Below are positions 16,731 through 36,989 of a DNA stretch of 64,000 nt, piece after piece. The stretch is from assembly GCA_000004985.1 (NCBI GenBank), contig GG738890.1; one strand, written 5' to 3'. Made by a program: the position numbers and the translations under genes. This DNA comes from Naegleria gruberi. Its lineage: Eukaryota. Every line of letters begins with the position of its first letter. Positions within the stretch are counted from its first letter, which is position 1. The notes beneath the pieces were generated by a model that had not been told where the DNA came from, ran no database searches, and was given only the letters and a program-made list of their open reading frames with translations.

Positions 16731-17759
16731 TTACCAATATCTACTTCTTGTCTCCTGTGTGGGCAATACCTTCCTCAACACAAATAATGAATATAGGAAA
16801 GGGAATTCCAATTTTTCAATAGAATCAAACTTGCTACTGAGCTCGAAATATTGAACTCTGCAATCAATCAAATCTATTCCTCCGTACAAGTAGAATTCTG
16901 GTATTATTTCTTCCAAATATTGAGTTATCATACTGTTGGTCACCTTTTTTTCCTTGTCACTCTTCATACCTACCAATCCAAGAAATCGATTCTTATCCAA
17001 TAGATATTCGTATAAATTCTTTTCTGCTTTCACCTTTTCAAAATAACTTATCATTTGTTTACAAATGTTAAATGATTCAATTGAGGAAACATCAAAACAA
17101 TAGAACAAAATGTTACACTGTTGCATTTGTCCTACGTTATATGGCACAAATCGATTTATGCCAGGAATCTTAATTAATTCAAGGTTATAATGTTCCGAGT
17201 AATCAAATCTAGTGGTCAGATAGTTAATTTGATTACTGAATCTTTTTATCCAAGTTGACTTTCCACAAGATCCGTATCCAGCAATTCCAATTTTAGGTTG
17301 TTTTTGTTCTCCCACTACCAACTGTCCACTTTTAATGGCTCCTCTGATTCTAGGAACAAGATTGTCATGAAAATGAACTAGGGCACTATGTACATTCAAT
17401 CTCATTGGTTTCAGTAGGCAATTTGGTTGTTTCCCTCTATTTTCTAACTGATCCTTCCACAAGAGTGGTTGAAATATCCAGTATTTAGCAAAATTCTTAC
17501 TCACTCTCATCAATTTGATAATATCTGAATTTGGCAAATATCTCATCACATTAATGACCAATTCATACGGTAGCATTCTCTCCATCAATGATTGATTATT
17601 TTCATTAAATACATTAGGATCATTTCTATCTAAATATTCACTCTCTTGATCCATTAATTCCAACTCTTCATAATCAATTTCGATCGGAATGATCTTCTCC
17701 AAATTTAAATCATCAAGAATGATTCTATTACTGGAAAGAGTTGTGTGTTGTTGACCCAT
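16731..17759 (-). CDS. F-box domain fused to divergent Ras-superfamily GTPase domain
   Basis: 342 aa. F-box 'LPYELVINVMRYLPNSDIIKLMRVSKNFAKYW'. P-loop 'GIAGYGSCGKST'. The G3 motif reads DVSS instead of DxxGQ and G4 reads MKSD instead of NKxD, so the domain may be catalytically impaired. aaaaaaATG start at 17759. Confidence 0.55.
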   Translation of the reverse strand: MGQQHTTLSSNRIILDDLNLEKIIPIEIDYEELELMDQESEYLDRNDPNVFNENNQSLMERMLPYELVINVMRYLPNSDIIKLMRVSKNFAKYWIFQPLLWKDQLENRGKQPNCLLKPMRLNVHSALVHFHDNLVPRIRGAIKSGQLVVGEQKQPKIGIAGYGSCGKSTWIKRFSNQINYLTTRFDYSEHYNLELIKIPGINRFVPYNVGQMQQCNILFYCFDVSSIESFNICKQMISYFEKVKAEKNLYEYLLDKNRFLGLVGMKSDKEKKVTNSMITQYLEEIIPEFYLYGGIDLIDCRVQYFELSSKFDSIEKLEFPFLYSLFVLRKVLPTQETRSRYW

Positions 17760-18034: not shown

Positions 18035-18160
18035 GGGGTCTTGGCGCAGTCGGTATTATTAATAGATTTTAGGGTAGGTAACGCTCTCAATCTACCTCAA
18101 CGTCGGTAGCGCGTAGGTCTCATAATCCTAAGGTCGTGAGTTCGATCCTCACAGACCCCA
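18035..18160 (+). tRNA. tRNA-Met(CAU) copy interrupted by a 53-nt insertion in the D-loop
   Basis: Identical to the intact 73-nt tRNA-Met at 36917..36989 and 25622..25694 (minus), except for an insertion at 18055..18107. The insertion is ATTATTAATAGATTTTAGGGTAGGTAACGCTCTCAATCTACCTCAAC plus GTCGGT, which duplicates the 6 nt preceding it. CTTTTG follows the 3' end. Confidence 0.6.
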
Positions 18161-18320: not shown

Positions 18321-20378
18321 ATGCTCAACAATGTTCATCATGTCGATCATCAAATATTGAACGAAATGGATGACTACTTTTCAAGAAGGAACAAACTCTT
18401 TGATCAATTCAAAGAAAAACGAAGAAGAGAATTGGGAAATAAAATCGGGAAGGAAATTACCATCACAATAGATAAAGATGTAGTGAAGGGGAAAGCCTTT
18501 GAAACGAGCCCATACAAAATAGCATCCGATCTTTCCAATGATCAATCTATGGATCATCTTATTGCCAAGATTAATGGTAAATTATGGGACATGAATAGAG
18601 AGTTGGAAGGAGATGGTCGATTGGAATTTTGTTCTGATTGGAATGATTTGGAGGTGAGGAGAGTTTTCAAGCGTAGTTCTGCATTTGTGTTGGGAGCAGC
18701 TGTGGAACAAGTATTCAAATGTTTGGTCAGTGGTGGAGCTGTACTTGAGGATGATTATGGCAAGGGAGGTTTCTTTTATGAGAATTTTATGGATGAAGTA
18801 GTTAGAAATAGCTCTATAAATGATCATTCGAAAATCAAGAAAGAAATAGAGAAGATCATTGAAGAAAAACACCCATTCGAAAGATTAATTGTGAGGAAAT
18901 ATGAAGCTCTTGAATTATTTGCAGGAAACAAATTCAAAATTGAGCTCTTGAATGAAAAGTTTAAAGATGACGATTTCCTTTGCGTTTATCGTTGTGGATG
19001 CTTCATAGATACCTCTGTCGGCCCACATTTGTTGCACACTGGACAAATAGCATCTTTTGAAATTATATCAAATACTCGATTTCTATCTGATACAAAGAGG
19101 GAAATTTTACGGTTTTATGGAATTTCGTTTCCAACTGTTCAATTAAAGGAAGAATGGAAAATAATGACCCAAAAACTCAAACTTTGTGACCACAAAAAGG
19201 TTGGAAAGGATCAAGAGCTGTGGTTCTTTCATCCACATGCCCCTGGAATGGTTTCACTCCTTCCTCACGGCAAGAGAATATGCAATTCTGTTCAATCTCA
19301 ATTACGAGAAGCTTATTGGAGGTATGGATTTGCAGAGGTTCAAAGCCCCATTGTTTTGAATAAGGATCTGTGGTATTATCAATCAGGTAGTAGGAATCAG
19401 TGGTGGCAACAATACAATTTCGCTCTGGAAATTGATAAGGAGTACTATATACTCAAACCATACAACAAACCTATTCACTGTATTATGTATCGGAACAAAT
19501 CCAGATCTTATAGAGATCTACCAATTAGATATGTAGAATTTGGCTCAGTATTTCCGGATAACATCAAACCTTTTAGGCTGAATGGCAGGTTGAGAAGTTT
19601 CCAAAAAGATGAGTCAACCATTTTTTGCCAGTCAGACCAAACCAAAAAGGAAGTATTGAATTGTCTTCAAATGATGGGAAGTGTATATAACAAATTTGGA
19701 TTTGAATTCAAGATTGTATTTTCCACAAAACCTGTTAGTTTTTATGGTGACAATCTGGAATGGATCAAGTTGGAAGGTATATTGGAAACTGCCCTAAAAT
19801 CATTGGGTCATGAATGGGAAAGAGACGAAGGAGGGGCTCCTTCTCTCGGTCCAAGAATTGAGTTTTATGTTTCAGATAATTTGAAGAGGTTTATTTACCT
19901 TTGTGGAATAATTCAAATGGACTTAATGACACCACGTTTTTTCAATTTGACTTATACCAGTTCAGACAATTCTGCAGAATCAAAACCCATCTGCATCAGC
20001 AGTACCATCTTGAATAACACTGAAACTTTCATGGCTTTATCTGCTGAACGTTATGGTGGAAAGTGGCCTTTTTGGCTTTCTCCTAGACAAGCTATCATCA
20101 TTCCAATTTGTGAAAAGTGTAGTGAATATGCTAACAATGTTAAAGATAGAATTCATCAGGCTGGATACTATGTGGACGTGGATATGAGCTTTCATACGAT
20201 AGAAAAAAAGATTAGGAATGCTCATTTAGCTCAGTATAATTATATTTTAATAATTGGCGTCAGTGAGATGGAAACTGATTGCGTGAATGTAAGAATAAGA
20301 GATGGCGAACAAGAAGGAGTTAAATCTATTCAAGAATTATTGGAAGAATTCGAAGTTAAAATTAGGGAATTTAAATAA
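18321..20378 (+). CDS. Threonyl-tRNA synthetase-like protein with degenerate catalytic and editing sites
   Basis: TGS domain ('ITITIDKDVVKGKAFETSPYKIASDLS...IAKINGKLWDMNRELE'), class-II core ('YRDLPIRYVEFGSVFPDN...LNGRLRSFQKDESTIFCQ') and ThrRS anticodon-binding domain ('PFWLSPRQAIIIPI...'). Zinc/active-site residues are substituted: MNCPGH becomes YNKPIH, FGSCHRNE becomes FGSVFPDN, HRAILGS becomes MALSAER. The editing motif HSxAH becomes RSSAF. The ORF-track start at 18264 is a TTG. The ATG at 18321 has aaaataaaaATG context. Confidence 0.7.
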   Translation: MLNNVHHVDHQILNEMDDYFSRRNKLFDQFKEKRRRELGNKIGKEITITIDKDVVKGKAFETSPYKIASDLSNDQSMDHLIAKINGKLWDMNRELEGDGRLEFCSDWNDLEVRRVFKRSSAFVLGAAVEQVFKCLVSGGAVLEDDYGKGGFFYENFMDEVVRNSSINDHSKIKKEIEKIIEEKHPFERLIVRKYEALELFAGNKFKIELLNEKFKDDDFLCVYRCGCFIDTSVGPHLLHTGQIASFEIISNTRFLSDTKREILRFYGISFPTVQLKEEWKIMTQKLKLCDHKKVGKDQELWFFHPHAPGMVSLLPHGKRICNSVQSQLREAYWRYGFAEVQSPIVLNKDLWYYQSGSRNQWWQQYNFALEIDKEYYILKPYNKPIHCIMYRNKSRSYRDLPIRYVEFGSVFPDNIKPFRLNGRLRSFQKDESTIFCQSDQTKKEVLNCLQMMGSVYNKFGFEFKIVFSTKPVSFYGDNLEWIKLEGILETALKSLGHEWERDEGGAPSLGPRIEFYVSDNLKRFIYLCGIIQMDLMTPRFFNLTYTSSDNSAESKPICISSTILNNTETFMALSAERYGGKWPFWLSPRQAIIIPICEKCSEYANNVKDRIHQAGYYVDVDMSFHTIEKKIRNAHLAQYNYILIIGVSEMETDCVNVRIRDGEQEGVKSIQELLEEFEVKIREFK

Positions 20379-20398: not shown

Positions 20399-21649
20399 TT
20401 ATTGAAAAGAATGAAAATCTTGATAACATGCACTAGATTCAAGAATTTCTACTTGGTTAATCACTTGATCAATTGCTCCCTTGAGTGGTTGTGACTTTTC
20501 CACGAAAAGGGCAAAGTTTTTAACTGACTGATTACTGTCATTCCTATAATATTCAATCCATGCCCTTAATTTACCATTCAAAATTCCCAAATGATCAAAA
20601 GACGTAAATGGTCTTCCCCAGAATTGACAAACAATTTCATCAACGTTGAATGGTATCAAGTACTCTTCTGGAAGTTTCTTTGATTTTCTTAAATACTCAA
20701 CCAAAAAGTCATTCAAAAGTTTGATGATAATTTTGTAACAAGTTGCCATATTACCATCAACAATCTTCCACCAATTTTCTGACTGATCTAATATGGAATC
20801 ACTTGGTCGAATGGCCATTTCCAATGCTTGTTTCAACTCCTTACTCGATTCGAGCTCACTAAAAGCACTTCCAAACCATTTCGAATAAGGATAATATTTT
20901 CTTTCCAATAAGAAACACAAACACATCATTTCCCTAACTATTTTCCCAACCAGAACAAAACATCCAAGTCTATCTCCCACAACTCCACATCTTCCAACAA
21001 ATGGAGCTTCCTGTGAAATTTTGGAAAGTTGTATCATTATTTGATAAATCCAAACAATATCTGGATAGTAATTTCCAATTAACTCTCTAATAGGTTTCAG
21101 AATTCCACAATCATGATAGATTCTTCCAGCTTGTCCAATCGCCAATAATTTTTGCTGAGGAATTGACAACCAATACGTGTAATCCCCATTCAAAATTTCT
21201 ATCAACCATTTCGAATAACTAGTTCCATCATTATTCGTTCGTTTGAGAAGATAATTTGAAAAGTAATCTTCAATAGTTGTAATCTGAATCAGTAAATCTC
21301 CCAAATTATCATCAGATGAAGTTCTTGAATTGGGATCTTCTTGATATCTCATCCGACATGGAATTCCTTCAAAAATTGAAGGAACCTTCTCATCTAATTC
21401 CATCTTGATTTTATCTGAAAATTCTTCATACTCATCGGTAAGGAATAAAATAACTCTCGGAGCAAAATCATGATCTCTGCTCATCTCTGTATCAAATCCC
21501 AACACTTCACTACCATAACCAATTAAGGCAGCTGAATGATTTTCATTGAAATTGCCAAAATCACTCTTGTAGAGAATATTAGTAACGATTTGATGATAAA
21601 ATCTCTCGCATAAATCCAAACCTTTCATGGAGCGAACGTTTTCAGACAT
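20399..21649 (-). CDS. Hypothetical protein with Pol-beta-superfamily nucleotidyltransferase-like motif
   Basis: 'GYGSEVLGFDTEMSRDHDF' fits hG[GS]x9-13DhD. Two in-frame ATGs (21664, 21649). The second has aaaaaaATGtct context and is preferred. Confidence 0.4.
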   Translation of the reverse strand: MSENVRSMKGLDLCERFYHQIVTNILYKSDFGNFNENHSAALIGYGSEVLGFDTEMSRDHDFAPRVILFLTDEYEEFSDKIKMELDEKVPSIFEGIPCRMRYQEDPNSRTSSDDNLGDLLIQITTIEDYFSNYLLKRTNNDGTSYSKWLIEILNGDYTYWLSIPQQKLLAIGQAGRIYHDCGILKPIRELIGNYYPDIVWIYQIMIQLSKISQEAPFVGRCGVVGDRLGCFVLVGKIVREMMCLCFLLERKYYPYSKWFGSAFSELESSKELKQALEMAIRPSDSILDQSENWWKIVDGNMATCYKIIIKLLNDFLVEYLRKSKKLPEEYLIPFNVDEIVCQFWGRPFTSFDHLGILNGKLRAWIEYYRNDSNQSVKNFALFVEKSQPLKGAIDQVINQVEILESSACYQDFHSFQ

Positions 21650-21909
21650 TTTTTTAAATTGCATTTTACAATGAAACAGTTTTCAATTCTAGATTTTAAC
21701 TTGATATCACATTGTGATGAGACAAATTTCAAAGATCAAATTCAATATTAAATAACCCATGCATAAGATCGAAACCTGGCTTTGCTAGACATTTTTTTAG
21801 AAATGGTACAAAATGCATGTGTTTATTTCAATTCCAACTTAATGTTGTTAGAATAACTGTTTATGAAGATCGATAGATCTGTCAAATGTTTGGAGTTTTG
21901 AACTGTTCT

Positions 21910-23173
21910 TTAATAAACAGCTTCTCCAGCATAAACTTGATTCTCAATTCCACCCTCTCCTTGAGCAATTTTGAAATATCCAGACATTCCCCAATTTGGA
22001 CCCCATGAATTGGCAGCTAACCAATAATTAGAACCTCCCTCAACTCCAAATCCAATTAAGGCAACAGCATGTCCACCAAGAACTGTGTTTTCAATGTGTT
22101 TATAGACACCAGACTTGTAACTATAGAAAAACAAAATTAGAATATTTGAAAAACTATAATTCAACTCACCCTGTAAGATCCCTGTAGACTGTGAAACCAG
22201 CTTGTACGCTGCCATATGTCATGATTGCAGTCTTGATATTATTGATACCTGAAATATAAACAGTATTTTTGGCCTTATACTTGCTCATGGACATGGAAGC
22301 AATCTTGCATTGAGTTGGACAAGTTCCAGAGGAGAAGGTTCCTCTTCCACTAGCATATGGAATACAACTGTCAAGTGGTGTTCCAGTATTTTCCAAAAAT
22401 GTCCAAGAATATTTCAAATAACCTCCTTGACAGGCCTTATTCATTGTATCGCATTGAACTTGATATTCTGGTGAGAGGACAACATTGGTTTGACCATTGG
22501 TGGCAATGCACAATCTATGAGCCAATACATAATTTGCAGCTATTAGTTTTAAAAATTACCAAAAAGGAAATTTAAAATGTTGAAATTATAAAAAGTAGAG
22601 AAATTAATAAATGAAATTGTAAAACTTAAAAAACTTACAGAAAGCCCAACAAGCACCACATGTTTGTTGATCTCTAATTGCTGGAACGCATCCTTTCCAT
22701 TGAGTTCTTGCATCGAAATTCATTGGAATATCAATTCTTGTTTCAATATTTGCCATTCTTGGAGTGTCTTCATCAGAGCTCATCAATGAAAGACCAAATA
22801 GATTATCTCTAAGTTGTGAAATGGTCATATTATCAAATCTAGAGTATTCAGTTGCCTTCCATCCATGAGTATGATTGGAATTAATTCTATCAATCAAAGA
22901 TTTGTCATTGACAGGAGTGTTGGCATGAGTGTGATTAGCAATTGGATGAGTTGGATGAACAGGATGAGTGCTATTGTGCTTTGGTGGCATTGGTTTCTTA
23001 TTGTTTCCTTTGGAAAGTTCAATTGGAGTGACCATTGTCAACATGAAGGTGAATAATACGAAACAGACAATGCAACTGAGAACAAGGAATGTATTAGAAG
23101 ACTTTCTTCTAGTAGTAGCAAATGATTTGTTTGAATTGTTATTCATTTTGTTTTTTGTTATTGATTCAAACAT
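21910..23173 (-). CDS. Cathepsin B-like papain-family cysteine protease, 3 exons
   Basis: Exon 1 is 23173..22639 and carries '[10 protein letters not shown]' (catalytic Cys). Intron 22540..22638 (99 nt, GTAAGT...CTAATAG). Exon 2 is 22539..22170 and carries '...[13 protein letters not shown]...'. Intron 22121..22169 (49 nt, GTGAGT...TCTATAG). Exon 3 is 22120..21910 and carries '[11 protein letters not shown]...[15 protein letters not shown]' (catalytic His/Asn). Joined 1116 nt = 372 codons. The N-terminus has a hydrophobic stretch [20 protein letters not shown] (signal anchor). An alternative start ATG at 23146 has acaaaATG context. Confidence 0.8.
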
Positions 23174-25621: not shown

Positions 25622-25694
25622 TGGGGTCTGTGAGGATCGAACTCACGACCTTAGGATTATGAGACCTACGCGCTACCGACTGCGCCAAGACCCC
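25622..25694 (-). tRNA. tRNA-Met (CAU), elongator-type
   Basis: GGGGTCT-TG-GCGC-AGTCGGTA-GCGC-G-TAGGT-CTCATAA-TCCTA-AGGTC-GTGAG-TTCGATC-CTCAC-AGACCCC-A. Anticodon CAT. T-loop TTCGATC. No initiator-specific A1-U72, A54 or A60. Confidence 0.85.
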
Positions 25695-36916: not shown

Positions 36917-36989
36917 GGGGTCTTGGCGCAGTCGGTAGCGCGTAGGTCTCATAATCCTAAGGTCGTGAGTTCGATCCTCACAGACCCCA
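36917..36989 (+). tRNA. tRNA-Met (CAU), elongator-type
   Basis: Sequence identical to 25622..25694. Shares a 52-nt upstream block with the interrupted copy at 18035. CTTTTG terminator. Confidence 0.85.

Follow-up and report, generated by a model that had tools for sequence, protein, structure and literature searches.

Why would a genome keep a complete threonyl-tRNA synthetase (ThrRS) reading frame from which the active site has been removed? The question is raised by an open reading frame (ORF) in a 64,000-nucleotide stretch of Naegleria gruberi DNA (assembly GCA_000004985.1, contig GG738890.1), hereafter the window. An earlier note, made from the sequence of the window without database searches, had described the ORF as a full-length ThrRS paralogue with substituted catalytic ligands. 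It had suggested that the gene was retained in a new, non-catalytic role such as tRNA-Thr binding or regulation. Here, we show that the paralogue lacks the residues on which zinc, ATP, threonine and editing chemistry depend. Together, an intact frame under selection and an untouched anticodon-binding part indicate that the product is probably an RNA-binding or regulatory pseudo-enzyme, neither a working enzyme nor a dead gene.

The ORF contains no stop codons, compared with 25–64 in the other five frames. At 100% identity, its product matches NAEGRDRAFT_51559 of N. gruberi (XP_002673467; UniProt D2VQZ7), encoded on a 350 kb scaffold, and so the window is nuclear DNA of strain NEG-M. The NCBI gene model begins at the second methionine codon, at position 18366. 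The coding sequence and its domains are as follows.

18321..20378, + strand: complete intronless coding sequence of the ThrRS paralogue, 685 codons plus stop
18450..18635, + strand: N1/TGS-like domain, residues ~44-105; recognisable, under the Pfam cut-off; 49% identity to the canonical N. gruberi enzyme
18636..19136, + strand: N2 (editing-type) domain, residues ~106-272; editing residues replaced
19188..20051, + strand: class II catalytic core, residues 290-577; active site ablated
20052..20375, + strand: anticodon-binding domain, residues 578-685; best conserved part

All four ThrRS domains (TGS, N2, class II core and anticodon-binding) were detected using Pfam, sequence searches of the PDB, and AlphaFold2 (AF2) modelling followed by Foldseek. 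This bears out the claim that the four domains are recognisable and the ORF intact. The Pfam matches to tRNA-synt_2b (2.4e-23) and HGTP_anticodon (9.1e-17) were clear; those to tRNA_SAD and TGS were visible just under their cut-offs. In the PDB sequence search, the C-terminal 400 residues matched human cytoplasmic ThrRS end to end (E 4e-101), and over its full length the protein aligned with ThrRS structures from E. coli and S. aureus. The AF2 model, built with 60 homologues, had a mean predicted local distance difference test score (pLDDT) of 88.9 and a predicted template modelling (TM) score of 0.78. The pLDDT fell below 50 only at the N-terminus and in a shortened motif-2 loop (residues 412-422). 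The top Foldseek matches were full-length ThrRS structures (1qf6, E 9e-60; 1nyq, TM 0.83-0.88).

The active site was then audited residue by residue. For this, we aligned the ORF with E. coli thrS and with Naegleria, Willaertia, other heterolobosean, fungal and vertebrate enzymes; residues are numbered according to E. coli thrS from NC_000913. In the E. coli enzyme the zinc ligands are C334, H385 and H511, and roles have also been given to Y462 and Q484 (PMC11252418). Residues F379 and R520 sandwich the ATP adenine, whilst Y313 and R363 flank A76 (PMC11252418). The main replacements in the paralogue are listed below.

18672-18674, + strand: R118, replacing editing residue His73 (H73R)
18684-18686, + strand: F122, replacing editing residue His77 (H77F)
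19014-19016, + strand: S232, replacing editing residue Cys182 (C182S)
19467..19469, + strand: Lys383, replacing zinc ligand Cys334 (C334K); MNCPxH becomes YNKPIH
19554..19556, + strand: Pro412, replacing motif-2 Arg363 (R363P, with E365N); HRNE becomes FPDN
19617..19619, + strand: Thr433, replacing zinc ligand His385 (H385T, with Q381K and D383E); QDDAHIF becomes KDESTIF
19998..20000, + strand: Ser560, replacing zinc ligand His511 (H511S); HRAIxGSxER becomes SSTILNNTET
20025..20027, + strand: Thr569, replacing the adenine-stacking motif-3 Arg520 (R520T); nearby G516N and S517N

Hence, all three zinc ligands are replaced (C334K, H385T and H511S). The earlier note had reached the same conclusion but had mis-mapped two of the three positions. 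Its change of the MNCPGH cysteine to lysine was correct. Conversely, the histidine that it took from CHRNE is E. coli H362, which is phenylalanine here and not a ligand; the true second ligand is H385, replaced by threonine. Similarly, the HRAILGS histidine, reported as methionine, is H511 and is serine in the paralogue (ISSTILNN). The changes of the motif-2 arginine to proline and of the editing HxxxH motif to RSSAF were both read correctly. E. coli thrS, human 4ttv and the Naegleria canonical enzyme served as verified references, and comparison with them shows that the catalytic ligands are truly absent. Further pocket changes are Y462L, K465R, Q479L, T482I and R512S, and H309 was lost under all of three alignments. 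The motif-2 loop is shorter by 2 residues. In the N2 domain, the editing-site residues D180, K156 and H186 remain.

The losses are concentrated at the active site. Using 226 canonical ThrRS sequences (225 eukaryote-type plus E. coli), we identified 146 columns that were at least 97% invariant; 49 are changed in the paralogue, many more than chance would give. Of the invariant active-site columns in the catalytic domain, 17 of 20 were lost, compared with 22 of 76 other invariant columns (Fisher p 1.3e-5, with a list of active-site residues drawn partly from background knowledge). Amongst 392 ThrRS homologues scanned, the paralogue alone lacked every one of the 7 catalytic marker residues. Homologues that have lost only the editing triad are not unusual in this set and include some otherwise catalytic ThrRS. 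The paralogue scored 382.1 bits against TIGR00418, the NCBIfam thrS equivalog, marginally under the cut-off of 383.65. By zinc triad, motif 2 and 3 arginines and equivalog cut-off alike, it falls outside functional ThrRS. We infer that aminoacylation activity has been lost, and editing activity has probably been lost as well. The automatic name 'threonine--tRNA ligase' carried by D2VQZ7 is almost certainly wrong.

A pocket stripped of most of its threonine and ATP residues might serve another purpose. The remodelled site could have taken on another reaction or another small-molecule ligand, as in aaRS-like (aminoacyl-tRNA synthetase-like) enzymes such as AsnA and the amino-acid:carrier-protein ligases. 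The pocket has been remodelled rather than deleted, since F379, R375, Q484 and G463 are kept, and fast evolution is compatible with positive selection. However, every class II enzyme relies on its arginines in motifs 2 and 3 to position ATP. Both Arg363 and Arg520 are gone, together with E365; G516 and S517 are replaced too, and the shortened motif-2 loop is modelled as disordered. Moreover, defining a new conserved motif would require orthologues. We consider a new enzymatic or ligand-binding function of this kind very unlikely.

Clustering at 90% identity places a canonical N. gruberi ThrRS together with the N. fowleri enzyme. This protein, XP_002677200 (672 amino acids, 'threonyl-tRNA synthetase'), has all catalytic and editing residues, including every zinc ligand, and scores 657.7 bits against TIGR00418. 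Hence, the ORF in the window is not the only ThrRS gene in the genome.

The paralogue is derived from this cytoplasmic enzyme family. Its identity to ThrRS sequences declines from Naegleria (49%) to Willaertia (47%), other Heterolobosea (44-45%), Acrasis (41%), fungi and animals (37-38%) and E. coli (29%). The canonical N. gruberi enzyme shows the same taxon order. In a neighbour-joining (NJ) tree the paralogue was placed inside the Naegleria clade, with Willaertia excluded, at 98% bootstrap. Its terminal branch was ~20 times longer than that of its canonical sibling (1.21 compared with 0.055). Long-branch attraction would draw such a sequence outward, and so the nested placement is conservative. 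This position places the duplication of cytoplasmic ThrRS that gave rise to the paralogue inside the Naegleria lineage. In N. fowleri and N. lovaniensis, the canonical gene is interrupted by a single intron after codon ~152, and the paralogue has none; a retrocopy origin is a possibility. Placement within Naegleria was less clear, with NJ node support of 40% and no signal from lineage-specific shared states. Synteny was rejected as a means of dating the duplication, because the other loci share no gene with the window besides ThrRS. The duplication may precede or follow the gruberi/fowleri split.

The same observations bear on a foreign source for the gene. A giant virus might have captured a ThrRS that was later re-inserted, or the locus could be contaminant DNA or an assembly artefact. 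The absence of the intron, the long branch, the nearby tRNA genes and the lack of synteny with canonical loci could each be read this way. Yet the paralogue is nested inside Naegleria in the tree, and no closer viral or metagenomic relative was found. Base composition is uniform, with the paralogue matching its surroundings. The rest of the 64 kb contains ordinary cellular genes (the nucleoporin Nsp1, GMP synthase, YchF, HAD, CBS, CDC123, ATG4, kinases, Kelch-BTB, WD40 and LRR), and no viral hallmark genes were found in the window. Because this context is ordinary, viral insertion was rejected, and we regard foreign or artefactual origins as a whole as extremely unlikely.

We next consider whether the reading frame is maintained. 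In a simulation of neutral decay, the N. fowleri coding sequence was mutated, using the base composition of the window, until protein identity had fallen to 49%. Stop codons arose in all of 300 replicates (15-41 per replicate, mean 26.5), giving a Poisson probability of ~3e-12 for none. The real sequence has 0 stops and no frameshift. In comparison with N. fowleri, the proportions of synonymous (pS) and nonsynonymous (pN) differences were 0.75 and 0.31 respectively. Because synonymous sites are saturated, only the inequality pN < pS can be used from the ratio of nonsynonymous to synonymous rates (dN/dS). We also measured retention of canonical residues, with the canonical N. gruberi sequence as reference and conservation taken from 220 non-Naegleria ThrRS. 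Retention climbed with column conservation (Spearman 0.29, p 3e-14): it was 26% where columns were most variable and 68% where they were invariant.

These results bear directly on one alternative. In this reading, the gene would be a functionless relic: a once-constrained, or merely lucky, duplicate that is now silent or useless and has yet to acquire a stop codon. Such a history would suit a singleton with an extreme branch length, at a non-syntenic locus beside a broken tRNA gene. It would also suit two negative results: no orthologue was found amongst 5.8 billion proteins and 1.84 billion representatives, and no evidence of expression in a transcript index or the literature. However, neutral decay to 49% identity should have left 15-41 stops. 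In addition, nonsynonymous sites are far from saturation whilst synonymous sites are saturated, substitutions outside the active site avoid conserved columns, and every invariant column of the anticodon-binding domain is kept. A relic is therefore improbable, though less so than a new catalytic function. The data instead support, indirectly, maintenance by purifying selection, rather than decay as a pseudogene, and so uphold the proposal that the intact but derived ORF has been retained.

The pattern of retention suggests what has been selected for. The anticodon-binding domain has 63-66% identity to the canonical enzyme and keeps 14 of 14 columns conserved at ≥97%, and 23 of 26 at ≥90%. ThrRS reads G35 and U36 of the anticodon alike in bacteria and yeast mitochondria (PMC4756836). 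The anticodon-reading residues E600 (E649 of the paralogue, 20265-20267) and R609 (R658, 20292-20294) are kept, as are R583 and R611. Conversely, the catalytic domain, which in canonical enzymes is conserved more strongly than any other domain (86% in comparison with Willaertia), is the least retained in the paralogue (45%), and so the usual ranking of the domains is inverted. Within the catalytic domain, the segment containing motif 1 (E. coli residues 243-305) is 62% retained, compared with 34-51% for those that contain motif 2, motif 3 and the zinc site. Motif 1 forms the dimer interface of class II enzymes.

The explanation that we favour, and consider reasonably probable, is that the paralogue is a non-catalytic, dimer-competent RNA-binding or regulatory pseudo-enzyme kept by selection. 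In this scheme, a ThrRS gene would have been duplicated in the Naegleria lineage, and one copy would then have lost aminoacylation and probably editing chemistry. The zinc site, the motif-2 and motif-3 arginines and the threonine/ATP pocket would have been dismantled in that copy. Meanwhile, selection would have maintained an open frame, the ThrRS fold and the motif-1 region, and most strongly the anticodon-binding domain, including the residues that read G35 and U36. Through this domain, the protein, as a putative dimer, may still dock tRNA-Thr or an RNA resembling the anticodon arm of tRNA-Thr. It could then bind, sequester or regulate tRNA-Thr, or regulate the activity of ThrRS, either as a homodimer or paired with a canonical subunit. 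The role in tRNA-Thr binding or regulation put forward by the earlier note is consistent with the conservation pattern.

Pairing with a canonical subunit raises a more specific alternative. The paralogue might be an obligate partner of XP_002677200, in an asymmetric heterodimer that is active in vivo. The dead subunit would provide tRNA-binding or new interaction surfaces, and the canonical subunit would provide catalysis. Paralogues of a homodimeric protein begin with the ability to heterodimerise. Furthermore, no part of the catalytic domain is better kept than the motif-1 segment, and the tRNA-binding anticodon domain is intact. ThrRS contacts tRNA across subunits (PMC4756836), and SLIMP with SerRS2 shows that exactly such an outcome has evolved once (PMC10570016). 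Conversely, the canonical N. gruberi enzyme has no complementary degeneration and is ~90% identical to its counterparts in N. fowleri and N. lovaniensis, which lack a partner of this kind. An obligate heterodimer is therefore unlikely, although it has a better chance than a functionless relic.

Several points weigh against a selected RNA-binding or regulatory pseudo-enzyme. No orthologue was found amongst 5.8 billion clustered proteins, where nothing exceeded 49% identity. An exhaustive HMMER search of 1.84 billion representatives likewise found no orthologue, the next best match being 39-40%. Without an orthologue, lineage-specific dN/dS is not computable, and a recent loss of function is possible. 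Look-ups of the exact product (670-, 685- and 704-amino-acid versions) in an index of assembled transcripts and contigs gave no record of expression, and neither the locus tag nor the accessions were mentioned in the papers and supplements searched. RNA binding and dimerisation are suggested by sequence conservation only. The AF2 alignment was dominated by canonical enzymes, and so the model indicates compatibility with the ThrRS fold rather than proof of a kept fold or dimer. Finally, the enrichment of losses at the active site depends on a residue list drawn partly from background knowledge.

Although the paralogue is a singleton, it is not the only diverging ThrRS duplicate in the genus. 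N. lovaniensis has a second ThrRS locus, C9374_008036 (PYSW02000031.1, locus L008, 10001-12242), in addition to the syntenic copy (L009, 10001-12234). The second copy is genuine, retains the intron and occupies a locus different from that in the window. The synonymous divergence (dS) between the two copies is 0.12, below the value of 0.34 for the fowleri/lovaniensis split, and the duplicate is thus younger. Pairwise dN/dS for the copies is 0.25, compared with 0.03 between orthologues. The divergence is also one-sided: there are 40 copy-specific substitutions in the second copy and 1 in the syntenic copy. Near-invariant active-site residues are amongst those changed (Y313F, F379L, K465T and Q479K). 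This copy may represent an early stage of the same pseudo-enzyme trajectory. Since the N. gruberi and N. lovaniensis duplicates are independent, Naegleria has seen at least two ThrRS duplications followed by highly asymmetric evolution, with changes in the active site.

The two annotated N. fowleri ThrRS genes are a different case (VFQX01000014.1, locus L006, and VFQX01000013.1, locus L007). They are one residue apart and have upstream ClpB and Zn-cluster neighbours in common. Because of the identical neighbourhoods and the single residue difference, the pair appears to represent haplotigs or a segmental duplication of very recent date, and not functional paralogues. One of the haplotypes carries a ~6-kb reverse-transcriptase/RNase H element just downstream of ThrRS (L007, 13530-19523).

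The paralogue is flanked by an F-box/Ras-like gene and a convergent DUF4037 gene. Between the former and the ORF lies a disrupted tRNA gene.

18035..18160, + strand: interrupted third copy of tRNA-Met(CAT), with a 53-nt insertion (18055-18107) in the D-loop and a GTCGGT direct repeat at its borders

The spacing of 160 nt given by the earlier note is exact, as the tRNA ends 160 nt before the ATG. The interrupted copy and its immediate flanks are identical to intact copies at 25622-25694 (- strand) and 36917-36989 (+ strand). ARAGORN made no call here, and Rfam matched the 3' half only (24.9 bits; cut-off 29). The insertion could be the footprint of a mobile element, an unusual intron or a plain disruption. 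The tRNA gene is a positional neighbour of the paralogue.

The upstream neighbour (16731-17759, - strand) encodes a 342-amino-acid protein in which an F-box is combined with a Ras-family GTPase-like domain. This architecture is unusual, and the Ras match is marginally above the Pfam cut-off. On the downstream side, the only eukaryotic homologue found for the DUF4037 gene (20399-21664, - strand) is in Willaertia magna (45% identity). All other matches are bacterial (Patescibacteria, Chloroflexota and others; 31-41% identity), with none from N. fowleri or N. lovaniensis. The gene is a candidate for transfer from bacteria into the Naegleria/Willaertia lineage. Beyond it is a cathepsin B-type (Peptidase_C1) gene (21910-23173, - strand), spread over several ORFs, presumably owing to introns. 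In Willaertia, orthologues of the cathepsin and DUF4037 genes are ~5 kb apart, and this is the only trace of a conserved neighbourhood around the paralogue. No trace of ThrRS was found at the Willaertia locus, which is rearranged. We also found no synteny between the window and the canonical ThrRS loci of other Naegleria.

With clear homology to the parent enzyme, a compatible fold, ablated catalytic residues and an active paralogue covering the housekeeping role, the paralogue fits the class of aaRS-derived pseudoenzymes. It resembles canonical cytoplasmic ThrRS of the TARS1 type (XP_002677200; N. fowleri FDP41_012494) in four-domain architecture, N-terminal helix, length, anticodon residues and 49% identity. 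It differs in the replacement of the zinc ligands, the motif-2/3 arginines, the threonine pocket and H73/H77/C182. It also evolves ~20 times faster, scores under the TIGR00418 cut-off, is intronless and occupies another locus. TARS2-type sequences in our alignment kept all catalytic residues. In vertebrates, the third ThrRS gene (TARSL2, encoding ThrRS-L) is likewise an extra cytoplasmic-type paralogue beside the housekeeping enzyme. Unlike the N. gruberi paralogue, ThrRS-L retains aminoacylation and editing activity (PMC5909460). The mitoribosomal protein mL39 (MRPL39) is a non-catalytic descendant of ThrRS and matches residues 55-286 of the paralogue (E ~5e-19). However, mL39 is a structural protein with the TGS and N2-like part only, whereas the paralogue keeps all four domains.

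Dead class IIa synthetase homologues have been reused as ligand or uncharged-tRNA sensors and regulators in HisZ and the HisRS-like domain of GCN2. These proteins descend from another synthetase, and they are ancient and conserved across many organisms. In addition, HisZ is without the anticodon-binding domain, the best-kept part of the paralogue. A closer likeness is found in SLIMP, a dead full-length class II paralogue that works through its tRNA-binding part (PMC10570016). Both proteins are full-length aaRS paralogues with an ablated active site, retention by selection and a preserved tRNA-binding module (PMC10570016). Conversely, SLIMP is derived from SerRS, is mitochondrial and is widespread in animals; its heterodimer and function have been demonstrated by experiment. 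The N. gruberi protein is a single-species singleton, probably cytosolic, known here from sequence alone. By analogy, it would be functionally most like SLIMP; by ancestry, it is related to mL39.

To our knowledge, dead full-length aaRS paralogues under selection are rare, with SLIMP the textbook case. We know of no description of a ThrRS-derived dead paralogue with all four domains, and our literature search found no paper describing this one. As a pseudo-synthetase the paralogue is clean and convincing; as a single-species singleton, its biological reach may be narrow. If expressed, it would be a simple system for asking why a synthetase scaffold persists without chemistry, whether to sequester tRNA, to act as a sensor or to modulate the active enzyme. 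The young N. lovaniensis duplicate would allow the early steps of the same trajectory to be studied. A bolder possibility, which we regard as doubtful, is that the dead ThrRS is a working partner or regulator of tRNA-Thr charging, and a protist counterpart of SLIMP, evolved independently and from another synthetase. If so, Naegleria would offer a time series of pseudoenzyme birth: a single gene in N. fowleri, a young and mutating duplicate in N. lovaniensis and, in N. gruberi, a fully ablated copy with its anticodon-binding domain preserved.

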